A stretch of DNA of 64,000 nucleotides from Escherichia coli (lineage in GTDB: Bacteria; Pseudomonadota; Gammaproteobacteria; Enterobacterales; Enterobacteriaceae). The position numbers and the translations under genes are program-made. Every line of letters starts with the position of its first letter. Positions within the stretch are counted from its first letter, which is position 1. Where the stretch lies: NCBI RefSeq assembly GCF_024502345.1, contig NZ_JALDNN010000003.1; one strand, written 5' to 3'. Shown piece after piece: positions 8,794 to 28,747 of this stretch. The notes under the pieces were generated by a model, which did no database searches, was not told the origin of the DNA, and worked only from the letters and a program-made list of their open reading frames with translations.

Positions 8794-8820
8794 CGACACG
8801 ACTTGCGAGGAACATTGCCC

Positions 8821-10650: not shown

Positions 10651-10728
10651 TAGGCGCTATTCAGAGTGAGCCGGCGGCTCTGTTCGGTGCGTCATCCAAT
10701 TCGCCGGCATTGTTCAAGGAGAACCGAT

Positions 10729-11187
10729 ATGTCTGCATTGACTCCGTGGGACCCCTTCCGGGAACTGGATGAATTGCAAAACCGCCTGGCGACGATGTTG
10801 GGACGGACACCCCAGCGACAGGGCGCCCGTACCGGCAACGAAGCCCTGACCACGGCGGACTGGGCACCAATGGTGGACATCAGCGAGGATGAGAACGCAT
10901 TCCTCCTCAAGCTGGATCTGCCGGAGGTCCCCAAGGATGCCGTGCGCGTCAGCGCGGAAAACGGCGTGCTCACCATCAGCGGCGAGCGCAAACTGGAAAA
11001 AGAGGAGCAGGGCAAGAAATTCCACCGCATCGAACGTGCGTATGGCCGCTTTGTGCGCAGCTTTGTCTTACCTGACAACGTTGATCCGACCAAGGTGACG
11101 GCTTCGATGAAAGACGGCGTGCTGGAAGTGCGGCTTGTCAAGGCCGAGCAAGCCAAGCCGAAGCAGATTGAAATTTCAGTCAATTAA
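10729..11187 (+). CDS. Small heat-shock protein (Hsp20/IbpA-like)
   Basis: AGGAGA RBS; alpha-crystallin domain (DISEDENAFLLKLDLPEVPKDAVRVSAENGVLTISGERK). Confidence 0.9.
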   Translation: MSALTPWDPFRELDELQNRLATMLGRTPQRQGARTGNEALTTADWAPMVDISEDENAFLLKLDLPEVPKDAVRVSAENGVLTISGERKLEKEEQGKKFHRIERAYGRFVRSFVLPDNVDPTKVTASMKDGVLEVRLVKAEQAKPKQIEISVN

Positions 11188-11208
11188 CTTCAATTGGAGT
11201 CCAACATC

Positions 11209-12117
11209 ATGAATATCAAACAGCCCCAATACATCCGTTCCGCACTTGCCCTGGCGGTCTGCATCGGACTGAGTGGACCGGTTTTGGCCCAATCGGCGGC
11301 AAGTCCAAGCGCTGCAGCGCCCTCTGTCGCACCCAAGGCGGCGCAGCCACAAGTAGACGACAAGGCCGCCCAGGAAGCCGAAAAAAAGCGTTCCGAGCTC
11401 ACTCAGGACGCCATCACGGCGCTCACCAAGACCCAGGAGGCTTTGACCCTCCTTGATGCAAATAAGACCAAGGAGGCGCTCGCTGCGCTGGAACTGGCCA
11501 CCGGAAAGCTGGAACTGGTATTGGCACGCGACGCCAAACTTGCTTTGGCGCCGGTCGATGTACGCGTCATCACCCATGATATCCACGCCAACGTGGAATC
11601 GGTAAAGAAAGCGGTCAAGTTGTCTCGGGAGTTGTTGGGTGATGGCGAGGTGCAAAAGGCCCGGCCCATCGTTGCCAATCTGGCCAGCGAAATCGTGATC
11701 GAAACCGACAACCTGCCCATGGCAACGTACCCGGCAGCGATCAAGTCGGCTGCACGGCTCGTCGACAGCGGCAAGATCGACGAAGCCAAAGCAGAGCTCG
11801 CCCGAGCACTGAACACGCTGGTGGTCACCCAAGTTGTACTCCCTCTGCCCGTGCTACGGGCCGAAGCCGCGATAGCAAAAGCTGAAAAGCTGGCCGAGAC
11901 TGACAAGCGCGATGCCAAGCAGAACGAGGAGCTCAGCACCTTGCTGTCGTCCGTGCGCACGGAGATCGAGCTGGCGCAAATCCTGGGTTATGGCAAGAAG
12001 GAGGACTTCAAACCCATCTTCGATCAGGTGAAGTCCATTGAGCAAAAGTCGGCTGGTGGCAAAAGCGGCAATGGATGGTTCGACGAGTTGAAGACGCGCA
12101 TCCAAAAGCTGTTTTGA
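11209..12117 (+). CDS. yfdX: YfdX-family periplasmic protein (copy 1)
   Basis: Signal-peptide-like N-terminus (MNIKQPQYIRSALALAVCIGLSGPVLAQSA); repeat architecture shared with the next ORF. Confidence 0.75.
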   Translation: MNIKQPQYIRSALALAVCIGLSGPVLAQSAASPSAAAPSVAPKAAQPQVDDKAAQEAEKKRSELTQDAITALTKTQEALTLLDANKTKEALAALELATGKLELVLARDAKLALAPVDVRVITHDIHANVESVKKAVKLSRELLGDGEVQKARPIVANLASEIVIETDNLPMATYPAAIKSAARLVDSGKIDEAKAELARALNTLVVTQVVLPLPVLRAEAAIAKAEKLAETDKRDAKQNEELSTLLSSVRTEIELAQILGYGKKEDFKPIFDQVKSIEQKSAGGKSGNGWFDELKTRIQKLF

Positions 12118-12219
12118 GGTGATGAAGGGGCCGACTGCTCCATCGGTCAGTCTCGCGATATTCGCAGTCGGCCCCAATAGATTCCCCTATTTTCACTATC
12201 TCATACGAGGCATATCACC

Positions 12220-13107
12220 ATGAATGAGCAAACATCGAATCCCAACGCGATCAACGAAGGCACGAACGAACAGGCCGCGGTAAGCAGCCTTCCTGCCAGA
12301 CCAGAGCCCAAGCCTGAAGTCGTCACGGAGGTACAGCCTGAGGTTCAGAAGGAAACGGACTCGCAGGCGGCAGACAAACGTAAACAAGTCCTCGATGAGG
12401 CCGTCTCGGCCTTGGCGCTGACCAAATCAGCGCTGGCGGCCCTGGACGAAAAAGAATCCGCGCGAGCACTGGCAACGCTGGCCGAAGTGACGGGAAAGCT
12501 GGAGCTGATCGTTGCACGCGAACCCACGCTCGCCCTGGCCCCCGTTGATGTGCGCACCATCGTGCACGACTTGTTCGCCAACACGGAAACCATTGAGGCG
12601 ATGACCGACGAGGCGCTGGATGCCCTCAAACATGGCGAGGTGCAACAGGCTCGCCACGTGCTGGCTTTGCTGGCCAGTGAAATCGTGATCACGGTCACCA
12701 ACATCCCTCTGGCGTCCTATCCCGCAGCCGTGAAGGCAGTCGTGCCGCTGATCGATCAGGGCAAGATCGAAGAAGCCAAAGCCGCGCTGCAGTCAGCGCT
12801 CAGCACGCTGGTCGAGGAGCGCAGCGTGCTTCCGCTGCCCGTCCTGCGTGCGAAGCTGCTCCTGAAGCGCGCCGAGCCTCTGGTAGAAGATGGTCAGCGC
12901 AGCGAAGCATCCAATGAGCGCCTGGAGACATTGTTGAACGAAGCCCGGCAGCAGTTGGAAATGGCAGAACTGCTGGGCTATGGAAAAAGGAAGGACTTTG
13001 AGCCCCTGTACGCTGAACTCAAGAAAATCAAGGAAAAGACGGGAGGGGGAGGCTTCGGAAAAGGCTGGCTCGATGAAGTCAAGGCAAAACTGTCCAGGTT
13101 GTTCTGA
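12220..13107 (+). CDS. yfdX: YfdX-family protein (copy 2)
   Basis: Paralogous to the preceding ORF (shared ...GKLELxxAR(D/E)xxLALAPVDVRxIxHD...LLGYGKxxDFxP...). Confidence 0.75.
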   Translation: MNEQTSNPNAINEGTNEQAAVSSLPARPEPKPEVVTEVQPEVQKETDSQAADKRKQVLDEAVSALALTKSALAALDEKESARALATLAEVTGKLELIVAREPTLALAPVDVRTIVHDLFANTETIEAMTDEALDALKHGEVQQARHVLALLASEIVITVTNIPLASYPAAVKAVVPLIDQGKIEEAKAALQSALSTLVEERSVLPLPVLRAKLLLKRAEPLVEDGQRSEASNERLETLLNEARQQLEMAELLGYGKRKDFEPLYAELKKIKEKTGGGGFGKGWLDEVKAKLSRLF

Positions 13108-13115
13108 AACCGCTG

Positions 13116-13142
13116 GAGAGGGGGCGCATAGTGCCCCCTCTC
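13116..13142 (+). terminator. Stem-loop downstream of yfdX copy 2 (candidate terminator)
   Basis: GAGAGGGGGC-gcatagt-GCCCCCTCTC perfect 10-bp stem; T-rich tract follows only after about 20 nt. Confidence 0.45.
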
Positions 13143-13196
13143 TTGTCCCATGAGTGTTTGATTTTTTATTTTGTATAGATCTTTAGGAGATATTGC

Positions 13197-13808
13197 ATGA
13201 ACACAGACACCATCACCGATTCCAGTGCGGATGACCCCACCAAAGCACTGTGTTCGCTTAGCCAAAATTGGTGGCTTTTTGTGCTGCGCGGTGTCTTGGC
13301 ATTGATTTTTGCAGCCCTCGCGTTCTGGATGCCACAATCGGCTCTGTTGGCCATGACCATCATGTTCGGCGCATTTTCCTTGGTCAATGGCGCGTTCAAC
13401 TTGTTTGCAGCGGTGCGCCATATCCAGAAAAAAGAGCGCTGGGGCTGGTTGTTGTTCAGCGGCATTGTCGGCATACTTACGGGCGTCGTCGTCCTGGTTG
13501 CTCCTTGGGTCGCCACGATAGTCCTGGCTTCTTTTTTATGGGCTAGCGTGGGCTTCTGGGCGATTTTCACCGGTGTGCTGGAGATATCTGCCGCCGTTCG
13601 GCTGCGTCGGGAAATCAAGGGTGAAATCTGGCTTGCCCTCAGTGGACTGCTCTCGATTATCCTTGGTGCTATCGTCTTGTGGATATTTTTTACCCGCCCG
13701 GTCGAGTCATTCGTGGCCGCAGGCTGGCTGTTGGGTTTCCATGCGGCAGTCTATGGCGTCACGCTTTTGTTCTTGAGTTGGAGTCTTCGCAAAACGCGCC
13801 AGGGGTAA
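13197..13808 (+). CDS. hdeD: HdeD-family acid-resistance membrane protein
   Basis: Six hydrophobic segments; HdeD-like N-terminus (NWWLFVLRGVLALIFAALAF...). Confidence 0.8.
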   Translation: MNTDTITDSSADDPTKALCSLSQNWWLFVLRGVLALIFAALAFWMPQSALLAMTIMFGAFSLVNGAFNLFAAVRHIQKKERWGWLLFSGIVGILTGVVVLVAPWVATIVLASFLWASVGFWAIFTGVLEISAAVRLRREIKGEIWLALSGLLSIILGAIVLWIFFTRPVESFVAAGWLLGFHAAVYGVTLLFLSWSLRKTRQG

Positions 13809-13887
13809 GAGCGTGCCAAACCAAAATCTATGGATATGAGCATCCTCGATTCATGCCTCCATAGAAATGACATCGAAGGAGTCATAC

Positions 13888-14562
13888 ATGCAGATACAAT
13901 ATAGCTATCGAGCTATCGACAAAGAGTTTCATGAACCTTGGCAGAGAGCTTTGGGAAATGTGATCGAGCACGCCCTCAAGCCATTGCTCGACAAACACAC
14001 TAAAGATTCAGCGCGACTTCAAATCGTCCTTGATCGCGACAAGATCAAGCGGCAATTTCTGGCCAGTGGCTATATGCACCTGCCCGGCAAAAAGATTGTC
14101 AGTGTTACTGCATCACATGACGAGCTGACGCCCCTCGCGCAGATGCTCGCAAAGTCGTTGTTCCGTCAGGCCAAGAAGCATTTTGACCGACTGCATGCTC
14201 AGGATCAAATCAAGCGCAAAGCACGACGCGAGCGCTTGCGCGAGCTCAAGGTGCGGATTGCCGCAAAACCCGCATCAGCCGCCCATGAGGCCGAGGTGAT
14301 CCGAATGCCTCTACTGTCGAAACTTGAGGCTGTCGCAAGGCGTGAGCTGGCTTATCTGCGGGCCGTCGGCGATTTACCGCGCGATTATCCGACGCTGCGC
14401 GACGTGGTGGATGAAGCGATTGTCCAAGCTGAGGTGGAATGGCAATCCGTGCCGGAAGAAAAAGCGGTTCGGTATAAGACATGGGGGCAGCACCGTACCG
14501 GAAAGGTCAGGTGTTGCACTCAGTTTTTGCCGCCGCCAAGCATCAACCAGATAATCCGATGA
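13888..14562 (+). CDS. hypothetical protein (225 aa, basic/helical)
   Basis: AAGGAG RBS 6 nt upstream of ATG; no recognisable motif. Confidence 0.5.
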   Translation: MQIQYSYRAIDKEFHEPWQRALGNVIEHALKPLLDKHTKDSARLQIVLDRDKIKRQFLASGYMHLPGKKIVSVTASHDELTPLAQMLAKSLFRQAKKHFDRLHAQDQIKRKARRERLRELKVRIAAKPASAAHEAEVIRMPLLSKLEAVARRELAYLRAVGDLPRDYPTLRDVVDEAIVQAEVEWQSVPEEKAVRYKTWGQHRTGKVRCCTQFLPPPSINQIIR

Positions 14563-14645
14563 GATGCCGGTCTGTCTCACTCTCATGCAAAGGTAAGATC
14601 AACCATTTAATCCGCTTACCCCAGAATAATAGGGAGTGCATATAA

Positions 14646-15557
14646 ATGCATTTTTTGAATTTGCAGGTCACACAGGCAGAGCTCCTATCCGGCCTTATTT
14701 CCGTTTCCCAAACAGTTGCACAGATTGTGCTCGTCATGACCGTGGCGTGGCTCGTGTCCGCAGTGCTTTCGCGGGCCATCACACGCATCAGCAAAAGAAC
14801 CCGCACTTCCAAGAGATCTGCAGATGAGGTCAAACGCATTGAAACATCTCTTCGTCTGATCCGTTTCGTCAGTCGGCTGGTCGTGTGGGCCTTGGCCGTG
14901 ACCATTTCCCTCTCAATCCTTGGCATTTCTGTGGCACCGATCCTGACGACTGCGGGGGTAAGCGGCATCGCAGTGGGGTTTGCTGCGCAGAGCCTGATAA
15001 AAGACTATTTTTCGGGTTTGGTCTTGTTGCTGGAAGGGCAACTCCGCATCGGGGATATCGTGGATATTGGCGGTGTGGCAGGCCAAGTCGAAGAGATGAC
15101 GTTGCGCTATGTGCGCCTGCGTCAACTCAATGGTGACGTGGTCTATGTGCCCAACGGAGCCATCACCAATCTGACAAATAAGACAACGGACTATTCGATG
15201 GCCGTAATCGATGTCGGTGTCGCCTATCGCGAAAACCTTCAGGAGGCATTGAACGTTATGGAGAGTGTCGCCCGTGAGCTAGCTTCGGAAACAACCTGGT
15301 CAACGAGAATATTAGCCGAGCCAGAGGTCTTTGGGGTCGAAACGTTGGGTGACTCTTCGGTTATCCTGCGTCTTCGCCTCAAGGTCTTGCCAGGTGAGCA
15401 ATGGTCAATCCGGCGCGAATATCTGCACAGGATAAAACAGCGCTTCGACGAACTTGGCATCGAAATCCCTTATCCGCATCTGACGCTTTATGCCGGCCAG
15501 GACAAGGATGGAAAAGCCCCTGCCTTTCGGATCGAAGCTCCGGCTGGTGCCCAATGA
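14646..15557 (+). CDS. MscS-family mechanosensitive ion channel
   Basis: Three N-terminal TM helices and the conserved MscS core (GIAVGFAAQSLIKDYFSGLVLLLEGQLRIGDIVDIGGVAGQVEEMTLRYVRL). Confidence 0.8.
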   Translation: MHFLNLQVTQAELLSGLISVSQTVAQIVLVMTVAWLVSAVLSRAITRISKRTRTSKRSADEVKRIETSLRLIRFVSRLVVWALAVTISLSILGISVAPILTTAGVSGIAVGFAAQSLIKDYFSGLVLLLEGQLRIGDIVDIGGVAGQVEEMTLRYVRLRQLNGDVVYVPNGAITNLTNKTTDYSMAVIDVGVAYRENLQEALNVMESVARELASETTWSTRILAEPEVFGVETLGDSSVILRLRLKVLPGEQWSIRREYLHRIKQRFDELGIEIPYPHLTLYAGQDKDGKAPAFRIEAPAGAQ

Positions 15558-15568
15558 CACGGCCAAAA

Positions 15569-16388
15569 GGCACTGTTGCAAATAGTCGGTGGTGATAAAC
15601 TTATCATCCCCTTTTGCTGATGGAGCTGCACATGAACCCATTCAAAGGCCGGCATTTTCAGCGTGACATCATTCTGTGGGCCGTACGCTGGTACTGCAAA
15701 TACGGCATCAGTTACCGTGAGCTGCAGGAGATGCTGGCTGAACGCGGAGTGAATGTCGATCACTCCACGATTTACCGCTGGGTTCAGCGTTATGCGCCTG
15801 AAATGGAAAAACGGCTGCGCTGGTACTGGCGTAACCCTTCCGATCTTTGCCCGTGGCACATGGATGAAACCTACGTGAAGGTCAATGGCCGCTGGGCGTA
15901 TCTGTACCGGGCCGTCGACAGCCGGGGCCGCACTGTCGATTTTTATCTCTCCTCCCGTCGTAACAGCAAAGCTGCATACCGGTTTCTGGGTAAAATCCTC
16001 AACAACGTGAAGAAGTGGCAGATCCCGCGATTCATCAACACGGATAAAGCGCCCGCCTATGGTCGCGCGCTTGCTCTGCTCAAACGCGAAGGCCGGTGCC
16101 CGTCTGACGTTGAACACCGACAGATTAAGTACCGGAACAACGTGATTGAATGCGATCATGGCAAACTGAAACGGATAATCGGCGCCACGCTGGGATTTAA
16201 ATCCATGAAGACGGCTTACGCCACCATCAAAGGTATTGAGGTGATGCGTGCACTACGCAAAGGCCAGGCCTCAGCATTTTATTATGGTGATCCCCTGGGC
16301 GAAATGCGCCTGGTAAGCAGAGTTTTTGAAATGTAAGGCCTTTGAATAAGACAAAAGGCTGCCTCATCGCTAACTTTGCAACAGTGCC
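15569..16388 (+). mobile_element. IS26 (IS6 family), copy 1, intact 820 bp
   Basis: 14-bp terminal inverted repeats GGCACTGTTGCAAA at 15569 and TTTGCAACAGTGCC ending 16388; canonical tnpA inside; flanking 8 bp differ (no direct target duplication). Confidence 0.95.
15632..16336 (+). CDS. tnpA: IS26 transposase Tnp26
   Basis: MNPFKGRHFQRDIILWAVRWYCKYGISYRELQEMLAERGVNVDHSTIYRWVQRYAPEME..., 234 aa. Confidence 0.95.
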   Translation: MNPFKGRHFQRDIILWAVRWYCKYGISYRELQEMLAERGVNVDHSTIYRWVQRYAPEMEKRLRWYWRNPSDLCPWHMDETYVKVNGRWAYLYRAVDSRGRTVDFYLSSRRNSKAAYRFLGKILNNVKKWQIPRFINTDKAPAYGRALALLKREGRCPSDVEHRQIKYRNNVIECDHGKLKRIIGATLGFKSMKTAYATIKGIEVMRALRKGQASAFYYGDPLGEMRLVSRVFEM

Positions 16389-16709
16389 GAAGAAACAACC
16401 GCGTACTGGATGATTACCCCACCAAAAGGGAAAATATTAGGCGTTGTCAAAGGGAAACCTGCGTGGGTTGATATTCCTCCGCCAACACAGGAAGAGCTGA
16501 TCCAGGTCGCTGAGCGTGAGAAAAAGCGACTAATTAATGTGGCTAACGACTTCATTAATAGTAAACAATGGCCTGGTAAAGCGGCAATCAAACGACTGAA
16601 AGACAATGAACTGGTGCAATACAATCTGTGGCTTGATTATCTTGATTACCTTGAATCAACAGACGCATCAACAGCACCTGATATTGACTGGCCTGAGATG
16701 CCAATATAG
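16389..16709 (+). pseudogene. Phage tail-fibre assembly protein (Tfa), C-terminal fragment truncated by IS26
   Basis: Frame is open from the IS26 boundary; C-terminus ...LWLDYLDYLESTDASTAPDIDWPEMPI resembles Tfa C-termini. Confidence 0.6.
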
Positions 16710-16819
16710 GAACCTTTTGTGGATTGAGATTTTTAATGTCAGCGAAGCTCTTCGTCAAAAGTGAAACTCTGATAACCTGGTTCTACTGACGAACAGAAGG
16801 ATAAGCAGGAGATCGCTTT

Positions 16820-17380
16820 ATGATTATTGGGTATGCACGAGTATCAAGTAACCATCAGGACACCGAGCTTCAGATGCAGGCGCTCAGAGCTGCTGGCTGT
16901 AAGTTAATTTTTGAGGAAAAGGCTTCTGGCCGTAAGACGAACCGACCAATTTTGAAGAAAGTGGTTGAGATGCTTGAACCCGGTGACGAGCTGGTCATCT
17001 GGAAGCTGGATCGTATCGGTCGCAATGTGCTGCACGCATTATTGACGTTTCAGAGCCTCGCAGAACGCAATGTTAACATCCGTTCTATTACTGATGGCGT
17101 TGACCTGAGTACCGCCAGTGGGCGCTATAACTTCCGTAATATTCTCTCTGCGGCACAATATGAGTCTGATCTGAATAGTGAACGCACTTTGGCGGGGTTA
17201 GCGGTTGCCCGCGCTAAGGGGAGGATTGGCGGACGTAAGCCTAAGTTCACTAATGAGCACTGGGATGCGTTTGAACGGGAAATTAAGTCCGGCTGCTCAC
17301 ATCGTGATATAGCTCTCAAATATGGAGTCGGCCTGTCGACTCTCTACAAACGTTATCCGGCTCAGCAAGAGCATCAGTAA
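16820..17380 (+). CDS. Serine recombinase, DNA-invertase type (Hin/Gin/Pin/Cin-like)
   Basis: MIIGYARVSSNHQDTELQ... with catalytic Ser near the N-terminus and C-terminal HTH (GVGLSTLYKRYPA); position after a tfa fragment matches phage invertible-segment layout. Confidence 0.85.
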   Translation: MIIGYARVSSNHQDTELQMQALRAAGCKLIFEEKASGRKTNRPILKKVVEMLEPGDELVIWKLDRIGRNVLHALLTFQSLAERNVNIRSITDGVDLSTASGRYNFRNILSAAQYESDLNSERTLAGLAVARAKGRIGGRKPKFTNEHWDAFEREIKSGCSHRDIALKYGVGLSTLYKRYPAQQEHQ

Positions 17381-17622
17381 ACACTCTTTGCGTTCATTTT
17401 TGCACTGTGCAGAATGTGTCTTTTTGGCACCTTCCGACAGTGCAAAATTTATCGCGTTTTTGTGCAAAAAAAATCGCCGCGCTACAAAACGTGTGCTATA
17501 CTTGTGCTCATGCGGTTGGATTTCCTATCCCCCCGACCCGCGCTGCGGCGGGCCGAAAAATCCCAGGGATGGGTTTTTTCGGTGTTTTCCTCGTTGGCAC
17601 ATTCAAGAGTAAGGAGCGTTCC

Positions 17623-18231
17623 ATGAAGCTGTATTACACCCCCGGCGCCTGTTCCATGGCCCCGCACATCGCCCTGCGCGAAGCCGGCCTGAAATTCGAC
17701 CTGGAAAAGGTCGACCTGATGACCAAGAAAACCGAATCGGGCGCCGACTTCACCGCCATCAATCCCAAAGGCTACGTGCCGGCGCTGCAGCTCGACAACG
17801 GCCAGGTGCTGACCGAGGTCGGCGTGGTGCTGCAATACATCGCCGACCAGAAGCCGGGCAGCGGACTGGCCCCGGCCGCCGGCACGCTCGAGCGCTACCG
17901 CCTGATGGAGATGCTGAATTTCATCTCCACCGAGCTGCACAAGAACTTCGGTCCGCTGTTCAACCCGGCGGCCGGCGACGACGCCAAGAAAGCAGCCATC
18001 GAGATGATCGGCAAGCGCCTTGGCTACCTCGACCAGCAGCTGGCCGGCAAGCAGTATCTGCTCGGTGACACCTTCACGGTGGCCGACTGCTACCTCGCCA
18101 CCATGCTCGGCTGGTGCCAGTACGCCAAGCTCGACCTGTCGGCCTGGCCGAACATCGGCGCTTACGCCGGCCGCGTGATGAGCCGCCCGGCGGTGATCGA
18201 GACGATGAAGGCCGAAGGCCTGATGGGCTGA
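17623..18231 (+). CDS. Glutathione S-transferase
   Basis: AAGGAG RBS; MKLYYTPGACSMAPHIALREAGL... typical GST N-terminal thioredoxin-like fold; about 67% GC. Confidence 0.8.
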   Translation: MKLYYTPGACSMAPHIALREAGLKFDLEKVDLMTKKTESGADFTAINPKGYVPALQLDNGQVLTEVGVVLQYIADQKPGSGLAPAAGTLERYRLMEMLNFISTELHKNFGPLFNPAAGDDAKKAAIEMIGKRLGYLDQQLAGKQYLLGDTFTVADCYLATMLGWCQYAKLDLSAWPNIGAYAGRVMSRPAVIETMKAEGLMG

Positions 18232-18314
18232 GGGCCACCTGCCGATGCGGCGCGGGTCACGCCCGCGCCGCACGGCGTCAATCCATACCCCCCATCGATT
18301 CCCCAGGAGCCCCC

Positions 18315-19106
18315 ATGCTCGTCGAACGCATCTGGACCGGTAATTCGTACCGCAACTTCAACTACCTGATCGCCTGCCCCGAGACCGGCGAAGCGCTGGC
18401 GATCGATCCGCTGGACCATGAAAAAACCCTGAACACGGCCAGGGTCAAGGGCTGGCAGATCACGCAGATCCTCAACACGCACGAGCACCACGACCACACC
18501 GGCGGCAACGCGGCCGTGGTGGCGGCCACCGGCGCCAAGGTGATCGCGCACCACAAGGCCGCGGGCAAGATCGAAGGCATGGACCGCGGCGTGAAGGCCG
18601 GGGACGTGATCAAGGTCGGCCGGCACATCGAACTGGAATGCCTGGACACGCCCGGCCACACGATGTGCCACATCTGCCTGCGCTCGCACACCGACGAGCC
18701 GGCGCTGTTCTCCGGCGACACGCTGTTCAACGCGGGCGCGGGCAACGTGCACTACGGCGGCAGCGTGGACGAGCTCTACACCACCTTCGTGCAGCAGCTC
18801 GCGAAGCTGCCGGAGAACACCCGCGTCTACCCGGGGCACGACTACATCGAGAACAACCTGCGCTTCACGCTCGCGCGCGAGCCCGGCAACGCGGCCGCGC
18901 AGGCATTGCTGCCGCGGGTGACCGGGCATGACCCGGCCACTTCGGTGGTCACCACGCTGGCCGAGGAGAAGCGCTTCAACACCTTCTTCCGCCTGGCCAG
19001 CCCCGAGGTGATCGCCAAGCTGCGCGAGAGCTTTCCCGAGCTGCCGGAACAGCCCGACGCGAAGACCGTGTTCACCAAGCTGCGCGAGCTGCGCAACCAG
19101 TGGTGA
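18315..19106 (+). CDS. gloB: Hydroxyacylglutathione hydrolase (glyoxalase II), metallo-beta-lactamase fold
   Basis: AGGAG RBS; metal-binding motif THEHHDHTGGN; C-terminal glyoxalase-II-like region. Confidence 0.75.
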   Translation: MLVERIWTGNSYRNFNYLIACPETGEALAIDPLDHEKTLNTARVKGWQITQILNTHEHHDHTGGNAAVVAATGAKVIAHHKAAGKIEGMDRGVKAGDVIKVGRHIELECLDTPGHTMCHICLRSHTDEPALFSGDTLFNAGAGNVHYGGSVDELYTTFVQQLAKLPENTRVYPGHDYIENNLRFTLAREPGNAAAQALLPRVTGHDPATSVVTTLAEEKRFNTFFRLASPEVIAKLRESFPELPEQPDAKTVFTKLRELRNQW

Positions 19107-19151
19107 GCAGCGGCCGGCGCCGGCCCCTTACTTCAGCGTGAACCGCACGGT

Positions 19152-20165
19152 GTGCACTTCCATGTCTGCGCAGTCGATGGCGTGTTTGAGGAAGTGGCGG
19201 GCGAGGAGGGCGATGCTGCTGATGCAGCTTCTCAAAGCTCACCATCGCGCATCATCTTCCACCCCGCCACCGGCGTGACTGCGGATGCCGTGGGTCAGGT
19301 GCAGGCCAGCTTACGCAAACGCATCCTGCGCGCCTTTGTCGGACGGGGCCTGCTGGAGAGTTTCGAGGCCCAAGAGATGCTGGGCTACAAGCACAGCGGG
19401 TTTTCGGTGGACACCAGCGTGTGCATAGCGGCGCACGACCGCGCCGGGCTGGAGCGGCTGCTGCGCTACTGCGCCCGCCCGCCGTTTGCCATGGAGCGGC
19501 TGCGCAAAGCGGGCAGCGAGCTGGTCTACCGCTGCGCCAAGCAGCACAGCGAGCCCGGCAGCCTGCCTCACAACAAGCGCGGCGTAAAGGCCGATGAGAT
19601 CACCCTCACCCCGCTGGAGCTGATTGAACGTATCGCCAAGCTGGTGCCCCCGCCGCGCACGCACCGCCACCGCTACTTTGGCGTGCTGGCACCGAACTCA
19701 CCCTTGAGGCCTGCCGTCACGGCGCTGGCGCGTGATGCAGCGGTGAAACCGGCGCAGGTGCAAGCCGAGCCAGCCAGCACGGCTGCAGGCGAGGGCGCAC
19801 TTGGGGTAAGAAGCCCACTGCCAACCCAGACCGAGCCCGCCCAGCCGGTGCCACCCAAGCGCCCGGCGCACTATTTGTGGGCGGTGCTGATGGCCCGTAT
19901 CTACGAGGTGTTCCCGCTGCTGTGCCCCATCTGCGGCGGGCAAATGCACATCATCGCCTTCATCACACACAGTGCCGATATCCGCCAAATACTGGAGCAC
20001 ATCGGGGTGGAGACGGAGCCGCCGCACATCACCCCGGCACGCGGGCCGCCACTGTGGGACGAGTGCGACGCGCAAGCCGCAGAGGGCGTGGAGCCAGCCC
20101 CAGACTGGGATGAAGCGACCCAACCGGCCCCGGACTTCGAGGTCGATCAGCGCGTCAGTTGGTAG
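19152..20165 (+). pseudogene. IS91/ISCR-family (HUH, rolling-circle) transposase, N-terminally truncated
   Basis: ORF opens at an HUH-like motif (HFHVCAVDGVF) and contains HRHRYFGVLAPNS and a CPICGG zinc-ribbon-like motif; no N-terminal domain; abuts the gloB stop. Confidence 0.4.
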
Positions 20166-20582
20166 GGTGGCAACAGCGGTTAACAGTGGTTTTGCCAACG
20201 TTGCGAGGCAGCGCTGCGCCTGTCACCGCCAAAAACGGGTCATACCGAAAAATCTCGGGCAACTGGCTTTGAGAAATCAACCCAGCAGTCCCCTGTGTGC
20301 ATGCCTGAGACGCCCCAAACTGTGGGGAGGTGATCGTTTTTGCATGGGGGAGAGGTCTTGATAAAATGCCGGGAGGGCTTGCGGTAAGCGAGATTGAGAG
20401 AAAAACTGAGTTTTGCACTACTAAAAAAGAAATGAGAAAAAATAGCTATTTTTGCGTTTAATTTTGCACTTTTATGAAAGTCTTTAGATCCGTTTTAAAG
20501 ACCGTTTAAGCATTTATCAATGCCAGGCACTATACCGTATAGTAGGTTGGTATGTAAGAAGTTGGCTCTGACACCATCTAGC

Positions 20583-21215
20583 TTAAACGGCCTTCTTGTC
20601 TTCACTTGTTAGGCCAGATTCGGCTGCCTTCTGATCAAGTTCAGATGACCCTTTTTTCATCTGCTCATGTATTCGAAGTAAGCGCTCTTGTTCTGCTTGT
20701 GGTAGTTCTACCAGTACGCTGAGCGTATCGTTATATTTCGAGAGAAGATCTAGTACACCTCTAACCCCCATCCTTGCATAGATATCGATGAGTTTCTTTT
20801 TCTCATCGTGGTCTAATGCTTCAAAAAACATTGCCCATGTTAGAGATAAAAATTTGTCATCCTTAAGTGGCACTGCTGTAAATGCGAAAGGACTTGAGCC
20901 ATCGGTTAAACCATTCTCTATGATTGGTTGAGCCTGTCCATTGCTGCTATGAGCTTCATCCAACATGTAGACGCCATCCTTACCGGTCGCTAGCCACGCA
21001 AGGCTCACGTTTTCTATCTCTGAAATTTTCACCAGGATTTCCACACTCGGAGTGGCTGAACGTGCGAAGTAGTTGTTCAGCGTCGAGTATGGCAGGTCCC
21101 AATCTAGAGAAACTTTCCTGAGACTTCTCCCTTTGAAAAGAGACTTCATCCTATCGCGAATACTTTCTTTTCCTGATTGAGCAAAAGAAACATTCTCTTT
21201 CTTTACTGTATTCAT
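20583..21215 (-). CDS. Mu-like phage repressor (c/Repc family)
   Basis: 210 aa ending ...SEDKKAV (Mu repressor ends ...KKAV); divergent from ner. Confidence 0.65.
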   Translation of the reverse strand: MNTVKKENVSFAQSGKESIRDRMKSLFKGRSLRKVSLDWDLPYSTLNNYFARSATPSVEILVKISEIENVSLAWLATGKDGVYMLDEAHSSNGQAQPIIENGLTDGSSPFAFTAVPLKDDKFLSLTWAMFFEALDHDEKKKLIDIYARMGVRGVLDLLSKYNDTLSVLVELPQAEQERLLRIHEQMKKGSSELDQKAAESGLTSEDKKAV

Positions 21216-21397
21216 TTTCTTTTCCTTTTAACTGGTTGAAATAATTAATTAAAATTGATTTTCTCACCTGAGTTTTCTCACATGAGAAAAGAAAGAGCTT
21301 TATTTGCTTTACTCTTTCTCAAATTGGATCAATACTTATCCCAACGGATAACCCCTGCGGATTATCCGCCCGGTTAACTTTTTAGGGTAATCGAAGT

Positions 21398-21625
21398 ATG
21401 GAAATAAATGAAGTACAGCGTGACTGGCATCGCATTGATATTGTCGCCGAGCTGCACAAGCGTGGCGTCACTATGCGCGGCCTTTCCGCCAGCGCGGGAC
21501 TAAAACCCGACACGCTGAAAAATGCGCTGGCACGCTCTTATCCAAAAGGAGAGCGCATTATTGCAAATGCTCTCAATTTAGAACCCGCCAGTATCTGGCC
21601 AAGCCGTTACAACAAGGACCTGTGA
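21398..21625 (+). CDS. ner: Ner-like DNA-binding protein
   Basis: 75 aa; ...RDWHRIDIVAELHKRGVTMRGLSASAGLKPDTLKNALARSYPKGERIIANALNLEPASIWPSRY matches Mu Ner closely. Confidence 0.75.
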   Translation: MEINEVQRDWHRIDIVAELHKRGVTMRGLSASAGLKPDTLKNALARSYPKGERIIANALNLEPASIWPSRYNKDL

Positions 21626-21626
21626 C

Positions 21627-21742
21627 ATGTTCGTGACTGTTAACGAATTAGTTGGCGTCCCTGGACTGCCAACAACACAACAAGGACTGCGATACAGCCT
21701 TAAAAAAAGTGCAGGCAACTCCCCTGAACTGGTTCGCAAACG
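21627..21742 (+). pseudogene. MuA-like transposase, first 39 codons only (truncated by IS26)
   Basis: MFVTVNELVGVPGLPTTQQGLRYSLKKSAGNSPELVRKR starts 2 nt after the ner stop as in Mu; interrupted by the IS26 left repeat. Confidence 0.5.
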
Positions 21743-22562
21743 GGCACTGTTGCAAATAGTCGGTGGTGATAAACTTATCATCCCCTTTTGCTGATGGAGC
21801 TGCACATGAACCCATTCAAAGGCCGGCATTTTCAGCGTGACATCATTCTGTGGGCCGTACGCTGGTACTGCAAATACGGCATCAGTTACCGTGAGCTGCA
21901 GGAGATGCTGGCTGAACGCGGAGTGAATGTCGATCACTCCACGATTTACCGCTGGGTTCAGCGTTATGCGCCTGAAATGGAAAAACGGCTGCGCTGGTAC
22001 TGGCGTAACCCTTCCGATCTTTGCCCGTGGCACATGGATGAAACCTACGTGAAGGTCAATGGCCGCTGGGCGTATCTGTACCGGGCCGTCGACAGCCGGG
22101 GCCGCACTGTCGATTTTTATCTCTCCTCCCGTCGTAACAGCAAAGCTGCATACCGGTTTCTGGGTAAAATCCTCAACAACGTGAAGAAGTGGCAGATCCC
22201 GCGATTCATCAACACGGATAAAGCGCCCGCCTATGGTCGCGCGCTTGCTCTGCTCAAACGCGAAGGCCGGTGCCCGTCTGACGTTGAACACCGACAGATT
22301 AAGTACCGGAACAACGTGATTGAATGCGATCATGGCAAACTGAAACGGATAATCGGCGCCACGCTGGGATTTAAATCCATGAAGACGGCTTACGCCACCA
22401 TCAAAGGTATTGAGGTGATGCGTGCACTACGCAAAGGCCAGGCCTCAGCATTTTATTATGGTGATCCCCTGGGCGAAATGCGCCTGGTAAGCAGAGTTTT
22501 TGAAATGTAAGGCCTTTGAATAAGACAAAACGCTGCCTCATCGCTAACTTTGCAACAGTGCC
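21743..22562 (+). mobile_element. IS26, copy 2, intact 820 bp (one substitution versus copies 1 and 3)
   Basis: Terminal repeats at 21743 and 22549-22562; ACAAAACGCTGCC near the right end versus ACAAAAGGCTGCC in the other copies; no flanking 8-bp duplication. Confidence 0.95.
21806..22510 (+). CDS. tnpA: IS26 transposase Tnp26
   Basis: Identical translation to copy 1. Confidence 0.95.
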   Translation: MNPFKGRHFQRDIILWAVRWYCKYGISYRELQEMLAERGVNVDHSTIYRWVQRYAPEMEKRLRWYWRNPSDLCPWHMDETYVKVNGRWAYLYRAVDSRGRTVDFYLSSRRNSKAAYRFLGKILNNVKKWQIPRFINTDKAPAYGRALALLKREGRCPSDVEHRQIKYRNNVIECDHGKLKRIIGATLGFKSMKTAYATIKGIEVMRALRKGQASAFYYGDPLGEMRLVSRVFEM

Positions 22563-23246
22563 GTTTTACTTTCCCGCACAATCAACAAGCTGGAGCCGGG
22601 TTCTTGCACATTCCCGCAGGAGTTCAATCATAAGCGTTGGCTGGACCAGGAATTCAATGACGGAATGGCCAAAATGTTTGGCATCTCCTCATGGGATGAC
22701 TTACTGGATGGCCCGAAAAAAGCCATTTTGCCGAGTTCTGCGGCCTGGTATGACCGCAAATTTAAAACCCCCTCAGGAAAGTTTGAGTTCAGATCTGAGC
22801 TGTGTGAGAAAAATGGCCATACGGCGCTGCCGGAATACAAACCGGAGGCGAAAAGCACGCTGCCATTCCACTTGTTTACACCGCATGTGCAGTTCGGTAT
22901 CCATTCCCAATTTATCAACCTTGACTGGATGCAGGTCTTCTATCCGGAGCCGTTTGTCTATATGCATCCGATTTCCGCAGAAAAAAGAGGCATTGCCGAA
23001 AACGACCTGGTGAAAGTGTTTAACACCGTAGGTGAAGTAGAACTGCGTGCGAAGGTGACCGCTAACGTTCCGGAAGATTTCCTGGTGATGTACGAGGCGT
23101 GGTTCCCGAAAAGGAAATACAACGTTCAAAACGTGGTGGCAGATACCCCAGCCGATATGGGGTTGATGAAAACCGGTGCGCCAGGTGCGGCTATCCACAG
23201 TCAGTTTGCGGACATCATTTTGATCAGTAAAGGAGCAGCGGCATGA
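22563..23246 (+). pseudogene. Molybdopterin oxidoreductase catalytic subunit (DmsA/PhsA-like), C-terminal fragment truncated by IS26
   Basis: Frame is open from the IS26 boundary to the stop at 23246; overlaps the Fe-S subunit start (ATGA). Confidence 0.55.
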
Positions 23247-23800
23247 GACGCGCGTTTTTAGTTAATAGCGATAAATGCATCGGCTGCCGTGGCTGTGCAA
23301 TGGCGTGTAAGAGTTTTAACCAGTTGGAACCTGAACGTTTCTGGCGCTATGTCTACCCGCTGGATAAAGAAATTTATCCGCATGAAGAGCGGGCGTTCTA
23401 TTCGCTGGCCTGTAACCACTGCGAAAACCCGGCCTGTCTGGCGGCGTGTCCGGTAGAGGCGTACACCAAGCGTGAAGATGGTGTCGTGGTGCATAACCCA
23501 GAGCGCTGTATTGGATGCAAAAACTGTATCCGCAACTGCCCATACGGTGCGCCGCGTTTTAATGAGGAGACGAAGAAAGCGGAAAAATGCAGCATGTGCT
23601 ACGAGCGCCTTGATGTTGGTATGCAACCGGCTTGCGTGAATGCCTGTCCGGTAGGTGCGCTGACGCTTATCGATCTGGATGCCGATCCTATACCTGACAA
23701 TGCCGTACAGTATCCGCCGGGATTCCCGCGTATGCCGCAGCTTAATCCTGGCACGCGTTTTATCCTTGCGCGTCAGCCGAAGCAGCCGGAGGGTAATTAA
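23243..23800 (+). CDS. 4Fe-4S ferredoxin-type electron-transfer subunit of an anaerobic molybdo-oxidoreductase
   Basis: Four Cys clusters (CIGCRGCAMAC, CNHCENPACLAACP, CIGCKNCIRNCP, CSMC...CVNACP). Confidence 0.8.
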   Translation: MRRAFLVNSDKCIGCRGCAMACKSFNQLEPERFWRYVYPLDKEIYPHEERAFYSLACNHCENPACLAACPVEAYTKREDGVVVHNPERCIGCKNCIRNCPYGAPRFNEETKKAEKCSMCYERLDVGMQPACVNACPVGALTLIDLDADPIPDNAVQYPPGFPRMPQLNPGTRFILARQPKQPEGN

Positions 23801-24567
23801 TGGAAAAGTATGAACTTCCGCTGGTCATTTTTACCGTATTGAGCCAGATGTCGGTTGGGATCACGCTCATTCTGACGCTACGCACGCTGCAAGGAAAACT
23901 GGAAAGCAAACGCCTGTACTGGCTGGTAAGTGGGCTGGTTCTGGCGGTGGCGTCCGTTGCAGCGATCCTGCACCTTGCGCATCCGGATCGCGCCTACGAT
24001 GCCCTGATTAACCTGCAGCACGCCTGGCTGAGCCGTGAAATTCTTGGCGCCACCTTATACGGTGCGGCGGTCGGGGTGACGTTTTTGGCAAAAGGGCACA
24101 AAGCGCCAGCTGTTCTGGCCTCTGTTCTCGGTATCGCGCTGGTGGCGGTGCAGGGGATGACCTATGCTGCCCCGGCAATGGTGGCGATCGCCAACGGTCT
24201 GACAATGCTGTTGTTCTTTATCACGGTGTGGGTGATGGGGTGTGCGGCGATTCCACTGCTTAACCTTGCACCTGCCGTTGCCGCATTACGCCAGGGGATT
24301 GTTGTGTGTATGGCGGTCATGATCGCCGCGCCCATTATCTGGCTAAGCGGCGGCACCATCATGCAGATGACGGCGCATGCCTGGCTGACGTCGCCGCTTT
24401 ATCTGGCGAGTCTGGTGTGTCTGGCGGTGGCCTTTGTGCTAAGCCGTCAGGGAGAGCGTCGCGCAAAAGCGCTTTTTGTCCTGCTGTTTGTTGGCATATT
24501 CCTGAGTCGTCTGACGTTCTTTGGCGATACGATCAGCACCATCGTGAATATCGGTCATTTGTATTGA
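23800..24567 (+). CDS. Integral-membrane anchor subunit (DmsC/NrfD-like)
   Basis: 255 aa, about 8 hydrophobic helices, start overlaps the upstream stop. Confidence 0.6.
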   Translation: MEKYELPLVIFTVLSQMSVGITLILTLRTLQGKLESKRLYWLVSGLVLAVASVAAILHLAHPDRAYDALINLQHAWLSREILGATLYGAAVGVTFLAKGHKAPAVLASVLGIALVAVQGMTYAAPAMVAIANGLTMLLFFITVWVMGCAAIPLLNLAPAVAALRQGIVVCMAVMIAAPIIWLSGGTIMQMTAHAWLTSPLYLASLVCLAVAFVLSRQGERRAKALFVLLFVGIFLSRLTFFGDTISTIVNIGHLY

Positions 24568-24584
24568 TCGTGAGGTAATAAAAA

Positions 24585-24612
24585 CCCCTGTCAGGCGTTA
24601 ACCTGACAGGGG
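24585..24612. terminator. Bidirectional rho-independent terminator between convergent genes
   Basis: CCCCTGTCAGG-cgttaa-CCTGACAGGGG flanked by AAAA upstream and TTTTC downstream. Confidence 0.65.
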
Positions 24613-24636
24613 TTTTCTTTAGCGAATCAGTGGCTG

Positions 24637-25065
24637 TTAACGAACAACCAGCACTGGCAAAGTCGCGTGGCGGACAACGCTGGAAGCGTTTGAGCCGAGC
24701 AGATGGGTGCTGATTGATGGGTTACGCGACCCAATGACAACGACATCTGCATTCAACTCTTCACCCAACTCGTTGACCACATCACGGACACTGCCAAAGC
24801 GGACGTGTTGCTTAATACGGGAAGGATCGATGCTGAAGTGACCGACCATCGTTTGCAGACGGGTTTCCGCTTCGTGTTGCAGATGCTCTTCAAAACGACG
24901 GACATCGGCCGCAAAGCGGTGCAGGCTTAAGCTCGCTGAGCCTGGCAGCACATGCAGCAGATGGATAACCCCTTTATCCTGGGCCAGAAATTCTGCATGG
25001 CGAATAGCCTTGTCGCTCAGTTCCATTTCGAATACATCAACAGGCATTATGATTGTGTTGTACAT
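24637..25065 (-). CDS. uspG: Universal stress protein (UspG/UspF type)
   Basis: AAGGAG RBS; [48 protein letters not shown]...; adjacency to rnk favours uspG. Confidence 0.75.
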
Positions 25066-25248
25066 AAACATTCTCCTTGTCATTACATGAACACATAACA
25101 GCATAGTATTAAAAATGATTCTGTCAGTCACGACACAGATTTATGTTTTGCGAACAGGAAAGAAAGCGAGGAGCAGGGAGATCTAACCGGAAAGAGGATG
25201 CAGATGCATCCTCTGTAAGATAAAGCGAGTGGCTTTGATAAGACAGAG

Positions 25249-25659
25249 TTAGCGCAGGTAGTCGCCTGCAGCTTCAGGCTGGTACTCAAGCTCAATAACT
25301 TCGAGGTGCGTTGAGGTCCCGCCTGGCAGTTCCCAGTGAATGGTATCACCAACGCGCAGCCCCAAAAGTGCAGCGCCGACAGGTGCCATTACCGAAAGCT
25401 GTGTGCTGCTGTCAGTCATAGTGGCCGGATACACCAGGGTACGCACACGGACTTCGCCATCACTCAGATTGCGGAATTTCACGCGGCTGTTCATGGTCAC
25501 GACATCGTGCGGCATGGTTTCTGGAGAACACATTTGGGCACGATCCAGCTCGGCGTTAAGGGCGTCGGCAATCGGTAAACCAGCAAACGCAGGTTGCTCC
25601 AACAGGCGGTCAATGCGTTCCGCATCGAGGTCGTTAATGATGATAGTTGGTCTGGACAT
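25249..25659 (-). CDS. rnk: Regulator of nucleoside diphosphate kinase (GreA/GreB-like)
   Basis: [79 protein letters not shown]... Confidence 0.9.
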
Positions 25660-25889
25660 TTATTACTCCATGTCGTCGATACTGCGGGTGCGCAGGTAAA
25701 TAATCCCAAAAGAAAACCCTCACCGTCAGGCGGCAAGGGTTTAGCTTTTATGATGATACTGAGACTTACCCCATGTTTGAAGTGATTTAGTTCACATTCA
25801 GGCAAATCATCAATATTGTCGCGTATGGTGTAATGTCAGTCAGTTAACGAACCTAAGGTAATAAATCTGTTGCCTCCGTCGCATTGCTA

Positions 25890-26070
25890 CGTTCACCTTA
25901 TGTTATTCACTTCTCTGAAACCATCCTACCTGTGAACGTGTTAAGGGTACTATCGCCGTACCCTTAACAATCCCGGCGGGAGCCTGGGTTGCAAGGGAGG
26001 CGGCGGTGAGCCTCCCTTGCTCGTTCACGGGTATCAGTGCTTCAGAGAAGTGATACCGCTGAGGTGAACG
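25890..26070. other. Highly structured intergenic element: three nested long-range helices enclosing two perfect hairpins
   Basis: Pairings 25890-25898/26062-26070, 25907-25919/26041-26053 (13 bp), 25932-25938/26022-26028; hairpins GTTAAGGGTAC...GTACCCTTAAC (25940-25968) and GCAAGGGAGG...CCTCCCTTGC (25991-26020); stems conserved while spacers differ. Confidence 0.4.
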
Positions 26071-26238
26071 GAACCCTGAGCCGGGATCACATGTTCCCTA
26101 TAATGCTTAACTGACAAGCATTACGCGTATGGTGTGATTTTAGCCGAAAAACGTGATCGTTCTCCAATTTGCATTATGCTTTTTAAGCGCTCGCTGCGGG
26201 CGCGTCAAACAACTCAGTGTTCCGCGACAGGAGATCTC

Positions 26239-27069
26239 ATGAGCCAGTACGACAAACTTACCTTGAAAGACGGCAGCTATTTGCATTTTAAAGATTGGGG
26301 AAGTGGACAGCCCATTGTCTTCAGTCATGGTTGGCCGCTGACGGCAGATGCGTTTGAGGATCAGATGTTATTCCTCGGGTCGAAAGGATTTCGTGTGATC
26401 GCCCATGACAGGCGTGGGCATGGGCGTTCGGCCCAACCCTGGGATGGTCACAATATGGAGCAGTATGCTGACGATCTGGCTGAACTTACCGCGCATCTCA
26501 ATCTTAAAGATGCCGTCCATGTCGGACACTCTACCGGCGGCGGGGAAGTGGCGCGGTATATTGGCCGCCATGGAACGCAGCGGGTCGCAAAAGCGGTGTT
26601 AATTGGCGCGGTGACGCCCATTATGATCAAGACTGACTTTAATCCAAATGGCGTGCCGAAAGAGGTATTCGATGGCATCCGTGAGGGGGTTGTGAACGAT
26701 CGCGCCGCCTTTTTCTATGAATTGACCGCTGCATTCTATGGCTACAACCGTCCTGGCGCAAAAGAGTCGAAAGCCGTCAGGGAAAGTTTTGTTGAACAGG
26801 GTTTACAAGGTTCCATCAAAGCGTTGTACGACTGTATCCACGCGTTTTCGGAAACAGATCTGCGTGAGGATCTCAAAAAGATGACCATCCCGACGCTGGT
26901 GATCCACGGTGATGACGATCAGATTGTCCCGTTTGAAACCTGCGGAAAGGTCGCGGCGGAAATACTGCCTGATTCGCAGTTGAAGGTATATGTCGGCGGC
27001 TCGCATGGCATTTGCACCACCCATAAACAACAGATCAACGGTGACCTGCTCAACTTTATTCAGTCGTAA
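26239..27069 (+). CDS. Alpha/beta-hydrolase (non-haem haloperoxidase/esterase type)
   Basis: GGAG RBS; nucleophile elbow GHSTGGG; 277 aa. Confidence 0.75.
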
Positions 27070-27165
27070 TCGTTGGCAGATTGTTCTACGCTGATCTTCT
27101 TTTTCCAGGGGGATGAGCGAAGCATAATTTGTGCTGCGCTGACGTTAACTTCAACAGGGAACGCT

Positions 27166-27789: not shown

Positions 27790-27830
27790 GCTTACGGACC
27801 GACGCCAGCTTGCAGCGTCGGTCGCAAGTT

Positions 27831-28637: not shown

Positions 28638-28747
28638 GATGATTTCGGATACTTATATAAATTCTGAATATCATCTATTTAATCATAAAAAATGCCAGTC
28701 AGGTTTAGCTGACTGGCATCATTTTCATCAGGTGTGAACCGAAATGA

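Follow-up and report, generated by a model that had tools for sequence, protein, structure and literature searches.

A Mu-like prophage relic, probably permuted by IS26, on an IncHI1A plasmid of Escherichia coli

Organisation of the locus

The 64-kb window analysed here (the whole stretch of DNA, from Escherichia coli contig NZ_JALDNN010000003.1) carries at 16389-21742, between two copies of IS26, a compact mosaic of phage and foreign DNA. The right arm of a Mu-like phage, with a fragment of a tail-fibre-assembly gene (tfa) and a DNA invertase gene, is followed by GC-rich DNA with gstA, gloB and part of an IS91-family element, and then by a left arm with the phage repressor gene c, ner and the start of the transposase gene A. 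The segment is most probably the relic of one Mu-like prophage, and the evidence that carries this explanation is a 4-bp target duplication shared by both phage ends and a longer precursor form present in public data.

Features were assigned using profile-family searches (phrog, NF and TIGR), open reading frame (ORF) calls and base composition (Table 1). The order of features between IS26 copies 1 and 2, the two phage ends facing one another over non-phage DNA, and the truncation of both arms by IS26 (tfa at 16389, transposase A at 21742) had all been proposed in an earlier sequence-only reading and were borne out. Its estimate of 2.7 kb for the insert is replaced by a measured 2,834 bp (17487-20320). 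The GC content is 0.64-0.70 over this insert versus 0.36-0.51 in the phage arms, of which 1,098 bp survive on the right and 1,422 bp on the left, and the IS26-bounded unit totals 5,354 bp. All three IS26 copies of the window share direct orientation. The tfa fragment represents the final gene of the invertible tail-fibre segment, and in other Mu-like prophages homology to the window starts only at 16710, directly past the tfa stop codon, which is the boundary expected for a variable invertible segment. The gloB-like gene carries a gloB annotation in OW968028 and NZ_CP151408, and the IS91-family element has a non-coding 3' end, bases 20166-20320. From its location alone, and by analogy with Mu, the c-ner intergenic region is a putative early promoter/operator and transposition enhancer.

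Table 1. Features of the IS26-bounded unit and its boundaries (window coordinates; aa, amino acids)
Feature	Position	Strand	Evidence and remarks
IS26 copy 1	15569-16388	+	left boundary; 820 bp; terminal repeats GGCACTGTTGCAAA / TTTGCAACAGTGCC; outer flank GGCCAAAA, inner flank GAAGAAAC
Tail-fibre-assembly (tfa) 3' fragment	16389-16709	+	phrog_188, 1.5e-33, profile positions 87-181/207; cut by IS26
Serine DNA invertase (Gin/Hin type), intact	16820-17380	+	phrog_125, 2.5e-69
Mu-like phage right end (attR)	17381-17486	+	106 bp, non-coding; terminus ...GCCGCGCTACA-3'; putative transposase-binding repeats
AAAC, right-hand copy of target duplication	17487-17490		comparison with intact sites
IS91-family element, last 46 bp	17487-17532	+	end ...GGATTTCCTATCCCC; parted from the remainder by the phage insertion
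gstA, glutathione transferase	17623-18231	+	NF007831, 247.6 bits (cutoff 198); foreign, GC-rich
gloB-like hydroxyacylglutathione hydrolase	18315-19106	+	TIGR03413, 190.5 bits, slightly below the cutoff of 200.8
IS91-family 3' part (fragment IS91d)	19151-20320	+	1,170 bp; NF052416 / NF033538 matches
IS91/ISCR-family transposase C-terminal ORF	19152-20165	+	337 aa; within IS91d
AAAC, left-hand copy of target duplication	20317-20320		junction ...GACGCCCCAAAC / TGTGGGGAGG
Mu-like phage left end (attL)	20321-20582	+	start 5'-TGTGGGGAGGTGATCGTTTTTGCA
Phage repressor (c), intact	20583-21215	-	210 aa; phrog_3037, 2.6e-30
c-ner intergenic region	21216-21397		896-1,077 bp from the left end; c and ner divergent
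ner, intact	21398-21625	+	75 aa; phrog_769, 2.1e-30; NF007670 (SfsB/Ner family), 6.4e-21
Transposase A, first 38 codons	21627-21742	+	cut by IS26; 99.9% collinear with full 685-aa A genes up to 21745
IS26 copy 2	21743-22562	+	right boundary; inner flank CGCAAACG, outer flank GTTTTACT

Definition of the phage ends and lineage

Both ends were defined by comparing the arms with Mu-like prophages. On the right, 11 Mu-like prophage loci, made up of ten invertase loci and a prophage on a Citrobacter plasmid, are identical to the window over the right end (17381-17486) and then enter ten distinct host flanks immediately after CTACA. The homology ends precisely at ...CGCGCTACA (17486). For the exact invertase protein, the collection searched has 1,490 blocks, and all ten of the places displayed lie downstream of Mu-type baseplate and tail-fibre genes. 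The invertase arm, which the sequence-only reading had suspected of being a Mu-like right end, is 100% identical to such prophage ends and does not derive from an unrelated P1-like phage.

On the left, 584 blocks list the exact repressor protein, which in eight chromosomal contigs (L006-L008, L010, L012-L015) heads a complete early region of c, ner, a 685-aa transposase, a 297-aa B-type ATPase, GemA, Mor and an endolysin. These eight prophages are 99.9% identical to the window until 20321 and continue into eight different host sequences beyond it. The base of divergence, read on the reverse strand as ...CACCTCCCCACA, corresponds to 5'-TGTGGGGAGG at window 20321. Together with the Citrobacter plasmid prophage, nine independent insertions fix the left end here and not at 20221, where it had been placed earlier.

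The arm termini (17463-17486 and 20321-20344) form an imperfect inverted repeat matching at 18 of 24 nt. The window has seven TTTTGCAC octamers, of which five fall in the two phage ends, within about 150 bp of the termini: three in the right end, at 17398-17405 (+), 17440-17447 (-) and 17462-17469 (-), and two in the left end, at 20411-20418 and 20462-20469. By analogy, they are candidate transposase-binding sites. The earlier proposal of repeats resembling MuA-binding sites agrees with the octamers and the inverted repeat, but the end that bears them is now placed at 17381-17486.

The Mu-type gene order, with c-ner-A-B on the left, tail fibre and invertase on the right and head and tail genes between, was found in the complete relatives L006-L015, L003/L005 and L072. 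The Citrobacter freundii plasmid prophage (NZ_CP056853) has a right arm 97% identical to that of the window, a left end whose first 20 nt are identical to the window left end, and A-B genes 93.8% identical to those of phages bearing the exact left arm of the window; these similarities indicate that both window arms belong to one phage type. In a protein search, the transposase reached at best 68% identity to a sequenced phage, Klebsiella phage ST405-OXA48phi1.1, which places it in a Mu-like lineage and not in Mu itself. Neither megablast of the whole segment nor blastn of the left arm gave a match in the phage collection.

Several other candidates were tried and set aside. The E. coli genomes with the right arm were dropped as a source of the left end, since they hold P2-like prophages that carry the invertase and a Mu-type end. 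A prophage on the Klebsiella 'plasmid' NZ_CP098171 has an 83% match to ner-A and was rejected because its ends are unrelated. Following the L014 prophage through its DUF2644 protein yielded other genomes with other immunity regions, and pairing the left-flank with the right-flank loci in search of one common insertion gave no overlap.

The P2-like prophages form an observation of their own. Invertase and Mu-type right end occur in them at L026 1006-1759 (E. coli E41), at L027 41190-41944 (E. coli ET734) and in NZ_CP073946 (E. coli MB51). In these copies, the ...CGCGCTACA end is 96% identical, the module has tail-fibre genes on one side and the tail-sheath gene on the other, and the homology ends at the Mu terminal base. 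This suggests that the invertible tail-fibre module reached P2-like phages through insertion of a Mu-like phage followed by deletion. The invertase module is thus present in P2-like prophages too; the window arm is paired with the left arm by their common target duplication.

A single target site with a 4-bp duplication

Uninterrupted copies of the IS91-family element read ...GACGCCCCAAACGTGTGCTATACTTG...GGATTTCCTATCCCC straight through and preserve the intact target GACGCCCCAAACGTGTGCTATAC. Such copies occur at L001 9929-9974, at L002 4855-4900 and 7030-7075, and in L030, and their sequences differ beyond CCTATCCCC. Where the intact site reads CCCCAAACGTGTG, the window has CCCCAAAC/attL and attR/AAACGTGTG. 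The attL junction is ...GACGCCCCAAAC/TGTGGGG, that is GCCTGAGACGCCCCAAAC/TGTGGGGAGG..., and the attR junction is ...GCGCTACA/AAACGTGTGCTATAC, that is ...CGCGCTACA/AAACGTGTGCTATAC. Both junctions fit one target, CCCC-AAAC-GTGTG, in which AAAC is duplicated, and the insertion point lies 46 bp inside the IS91 terminus, just upstream of gstA. Since the two junctions are complementary at one target with AAAC duplicated, they point to one insertion of one phage, and the sequence comparison shows, as far as such a comparison can, that the phage inserted once only into IS91/IS1071-associated DNA with duplication of AAAC.

Two further insertions of the lineage were compared with their empty sites. The Citrobacter prophage lies in traG between CCAC flanks (L003 20778-20781, L005 15579-15582), where the empty sites of other plasmids measure 233 nt against 237 nt when the flanks are joined. 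A complete relative in ydbL of E. coli FDAARGOS_1303 lies between GATG flanks (L072 8336-8339 and 42579-42582), with 236 nt against 240 nt. The lineage with the ends TGTGGGGAGG... and ...CGCGCTACA makes 4-bp target duplications, namely AAAC, CCAC and GATG in three of three insertions. The length is 4 bp rather than 5 bp because the empty sites are precisely 4 nt shorter, and a 5-bp duplication with a mismatch was ruled out, the fifth flanking bases differing in all three insertions. The target duplication is 5 bp in Mu and 6 bp in B3 (PMC8705779). A literature search for 4-bp duplications in Mu-like phages found nothing specific.

The GC-rich carrier DNA

The GC-rich DNA belongs to an IS91/IS1071 catabolic mosaic typical of plasmids of Betaproteobacteria and Pseudomonas. 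The insert is 99.6-99.9% identical to IS91-associated modules on plasmids of Azonexus, Burkholderia, Comamonas, Acidovorax and Pseudomonas, with gstA 99.9% identical to the Azonexus plasmid copy, and the GstA protein is also found in an IS91-bounded tandem array of a 7.05-Mb chromosome. Fragment IS91d matches the 3' part of a full 526-aa copy in L054 without a difference in 1,170 bp, and the full copies of L002 and L001 at 99.9%. Full 526-aa copies bear both Pfam domains Zn_Tnp_IS91 and Y2_Tnp (Y2, HUH-type), and all IS91 copies share the conserved terminus ...GGATTTCCTATCCCC. The gstA and gloB modules each have the same IS91 terminus (...CCTATCCCC) ahead of them, and full and 3'-partial copies stand in direct repeat.

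In its native environmental settings, the region lies between directly repeated 5' parts of IS1071 (IS1071'-IS91-...-D-IS1071, with D a segment label). At 6.98-7.02 Mb of LT969520.1, an environmental chromosome (L030-L032, L042), at least four copies of an IS91-gst-DUF6537 module are followed by three of gloB with an IS91 3' fragment, all head-to-tail, and these arrays show that IS91-bounded repeats amplify readily. Given the IS1071 and IS91 direct repeats and the tandem arrays in nature, repeats for looping out or deleting carrier DNA are available.

A precursor and its deletion variants

The unit was found in three forms, named W for the window form, E for the OW968028 form and P for the precursor form, and IncL/M plasmids hold W, P-like and E forms at one common place. 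Form E, in the Enterobacter IncL/M plasmid OW968028, reads IS26-tfa'-invertase-attR-gst-gloB-IS91d and then enters an intact target site. Beyond that site lie a 264-aa ORF, IS1071 and IS1595 fragments and a full IS91 that is cut by IS26 25 bp before its target site. The comparison of W with E predicted P as IS26-tfa'...attR-gst-gloB-IS91d-intact site-D-IS1071'-IS91full-attL-c-ner-A'-IS26.

Form P was then found by looking up the 55-aa ORF that reads from A' into IS26 and is listed in 109 blocks of the collection. It is the 9,937-bp metagenome scaffold L054, which has IS26 tips at both ends. Positions 1-8436 of P match OW968028 at 99.98% and 7292-9937 match window 19151-21796 at 100%; the phage ends are 7.3 kb apart in P versus 2.8 kb in W. 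The IS91d of P does not differ from the 3' part of its full IS91 copy at any of 1,170 bp. The aligned forms show W to be derivable from P by the loss of 4,476 bp between these identical repeats, and E by the loss of 1,447 bp next to IS26. Beyond the intact IS91 terminus, forms E and P have a direct repeat of 36 bp of that terminus, TATACTTGTGCTCATGCGGTTGGATTTCCTATCCCC (L001 9938-10015; L054 3991-4068).

IS26 mobility and plasmid context

Form W is 100% identical in at least five backbones. The backbones that carry the unit are IncHI1A (the window), IncL/M-type (L034, L036, L052), a Rep3 plasmid (L039), CP199074 (L033) and L009. Independent assemblies (L009, L039, L052) have the 5,354-bp segment in other contexts without a single mismatch. 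Several other plasmids carry the unit at 100% identity, and so it is not an assembly misjoin, a possibility that the sequence-only reading had raised. Progressive IS26 truncations were seen as well, with the unit starting at 16816 in L034 and L053, starting at 16890 in L011 and ending at 21146 in L033.

Two short-read contigs are circularly permuted. L055 (6,192 nt) reads A'-IS26-tfa' and closes on itself as 5,354 + 820 + an 18-nt overlap, a pattern that assembly-graph cycles can mimic; it has 11 more similar places besides those displayed. L058 (5,128 nt) reads ner-A'-IS26-tfa'-invertase, and its IS26 has a split transposase ORF. By their sequence, both fit a circular or tandemly amplified unit, short of proof.

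The window is part of an IncHI1A plasmid and is 99.97-99.98% collinear on both sides with NZ_LR890350.1 (E. coli MSB1_9D plasmid 2). Positions 89200-95947 of that plasmid correspond to window 15569-22562 and have the same outer IS26 junctions (GGCCAAAA/IS26...IS26/GTTTTACT), but the slot is filled differently, with 5,108 bp that hold a ferritin-like gene, IS5 and a RelE/ParE pair. On this comparison, it looks like a cassette swap between IS26 copies. This filling, called segment Z, was compared with the HigBA segment beside W in IncL/M plasmids and was not equal to it.

The neighbourhood of the unit was also inspected. A heat-resistance island occupies about 3500-15557 of the window (hsp20, clpK, cls, ftsH, sHSP20-GI, yfdX1/2, hdeD-GI and a mechanosensitive channel gene), and IS26 copy 1 cuts at 15568. 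L012 has a 95%-identical island at 10896-20633, 882 bp longer, followed by attL of a complete prophage that encodes the same repressor and has the same orientation; this adjacency may be a coincidence or a trace of common history. Between IS26 copies 2 and 3, at 22563-39043, lies a chromosomal-type block with a truncated ynfF-like gene, ynfG/H-like genes, uspG, rnk, rna, the citrate lyase operon citCDEFXG-citT and dpiBA. With E. coli chromosomes this block shares only about 79% identity, and it was therefore captured from another enterobacterial genus. An IS66-family element (about 39834-42326) splits IS26 copy 3 (39044-42367) after its first 790 bp, and the last 41 bp of the copy follow at 42327-42367.

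Origin of the permuted order

The segment is best explained, with a probability of about 0.7, as the relic of one Mu-like prophage that was circularly permuted when IS26 opened its circular carrier and was then trimmed by recombination between repeats. The order right arm-carrier-left arm is the normal attL...attR-carrier order of a circle, because the reading starts at an IS26 inside the prophage. After the phage had inserted, IS26 would have entered the prophage and removed some 33 kb between A and tfa, leaving attL-c-ner-A'-IS26-tfa'-invertase-attR. The circular carrier would then have been joined to another replicon at this internal IS26, either through an IS26 cointegrate or as a circle with one IS26 entering beside another IS26. 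Homologous recombination of direct repeats would have stripped most of the carrier, the 5' parts of IS1071 first, and recombination between the IS91 repeats would have trimmed the 7.3-kb P to the 2.8-kb W. The resulting unit would now travel as an IS26 pseudo-compound transposon or translocatable unit. For IS26, replicative cointegrates, adjacent deletions, pseudo-compound transposons and translocatable units that enter beside an existing IS26 have all been documented (PMC4471558; PMC11102541).

Among the causes put forward in the sequence-only reading, an IS26-mediated, cointegrate-type rearrangement, assisted by homologous recombination of IS91/IS1071 repeats, is favoured; tandem elements were not seen, and tandem prophages are not needed for the explanation. 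Its view that no simple insertion could give this order holds in that the ends are inside-out, but one insertion suffices, both junctions sharing one 4-bp duplication.

Some points weigh against the single-prophage explanation. A genome-contig scan for the attL junction gave no hits, and the metagenome-contig scan gave only two W-type contigs; with no complete prophage found at this site, the shared duplication and parsimony are what support the single-copy history. The sequence gives no order of events, whether between IS26 fusion and repeat recombination or between a free circle and a cointegrate, and the crossover from P to W cannot be mapped by single-nucleotide polymorphisms, the repeats being identical. 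On their inner sides, the two IS26 copies have different 8-bp flanks (GAAGAAAC vs CGCAAACG), so at least one IS26-mediated deletion must be assumed. Finally, circularly permuted short-read contigs can stem from assembly-graph cycles and are no proof of a free circle.

The same local sequence, with AAAC on either side of the carrier, would also be predicted by a stage with two prophage copies, each later trimmed by IS26 to one arm. The copies could have arisen in tandem by unequal crossing-over between IS91/IS1071 sequences, for which the natural tandem arrays of IS91-bounded modules in LT969520 provide a parallel, or by Mu replicative fusion with a gst-gloB circle. However, this history demands two 37-kb copies and two independent IS26 truncations, and the A'-IS26-tfa' contigs L055 and L058 suggest that a single IS26 links both arms. 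The window and every related locus examined have only one right and one left arm, and no two-copy assembly was found. As for the fusion route, lytic Mu replication that fuses replicons normally kills the cell. A two-copy origin is considered unlikely.

Mu-type phages package flanking host DNA, and the 3' end of the IS91 on the left flank recurs 2.8 kb to the right of attR. The arrangement could on these grounds be derived from headful-packaged virion DNA of a prophage at this site, circularised through the IS91 terminal redundancy in a new host. However, the 7.3 kb of P far exceed the host tail at a Mu-type right end, and the length of P makes the 2.8-kb form secondary. A prophage short of 33 kb could not package itself, and there is no direct evidence for such an event, which leaves this route highly improbable. 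Two independent phage insertions at the same base in two IS91 ends, for which a repeated target would have offered two copies, or a misassembly at repeats are just as remote, since an identical 4-bp position is improbable for phages with many sites (nineteen other insertions are all at different sites), and the phage/IS91 junctions are unique sequence, not repeats, that recurs identically in independent assemblies, including CP199074 and CP180677 (complete-genome-style accessions) and metagenomes.

Relation to known mobile elements

The unit, interpreted as the relic of a single prophage, resembles IS26 pseudo-compound transposons and translocatable units in its direct IS26 bounds, the same inner junctions in several replicons, the stepwise truncations and the slot that is filled differently in a sister plasmid. 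It differs from them in its cargo, a permuted phage relic with gstA and gloB and no resistance gene, and in that a circular form is only suggested, by assemblies. With phage Mu, the lineage shares TG...CA termini, imperfect terminal inverted repeats, sub-terminal motifs, many insertion sites, a short fixed duplication, c/ner/A/B at the left and an invertible tail-fibre segment with a Gin-type invertase at the right, while the duplication length of 4 bp sets it apart from both Mu and B3 (PMC8705779). As in IS91/ISCR rolling-circle elements with captured genes beside IS1071 in catabolic plasmids, there are a shared terminus, direct repeats and tandem arrays; unlike in them, the IS91 element of the window is a phage-split 3' fragment only, a target and recombination substrate rather than the active agent.

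A likeness to mini-Mu or Mud elements was also considered. On the plasmid arc attL-c-ner-A'-IS26-plasmid-IS26-tfa'-invertase-attR, both ends stand in their natural relative orientation and the c-ner control region is kept. In contrast to these elements, the window unit is natural and not engineered, its 'interior' would be about 300 kb, and it has no transposase or B gene. It is therefore conceivable, though quite improbable, that the plasmid minus the 2.8-kb gst-gloB piece acts as a giant defective Mu-like element dependent on a helper, and/or that the repressor confers immunity. If so, the A and B proteins of a resident or infecting helper phage of this widespread lineage could transpose or fuse the whole resistance/heat-resistance plasmid into the chromosome or another replicon, with a 4-bp duplication left and the 2.8 kb lost, and mobilisation or immunity to the same phage type would favour keeping the unit. 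There is no sign of such mobilisation, as IS91 stays beside attL in all nine listed contexts of the A'::IS26 ORF.

Implications

A literature search for a description of this unit found nothing specific. The unit is an ordinary product of known mobile-element processes, and no new mechanism is required. It provides a traceable case in which IS26 and repeat recombination capture and shrink foreign DNA on clinical plasmids, with a precursor and two one-step derivatives all present in public data. The unit is useful as a marker of IS26 traffic among IncL/M (pOXA-48-like), IncHI1A and other plasmids. The 4-bp duplication is a small concrete addition to what is known of transposable phages and offers an annotation criterion for their prophages.

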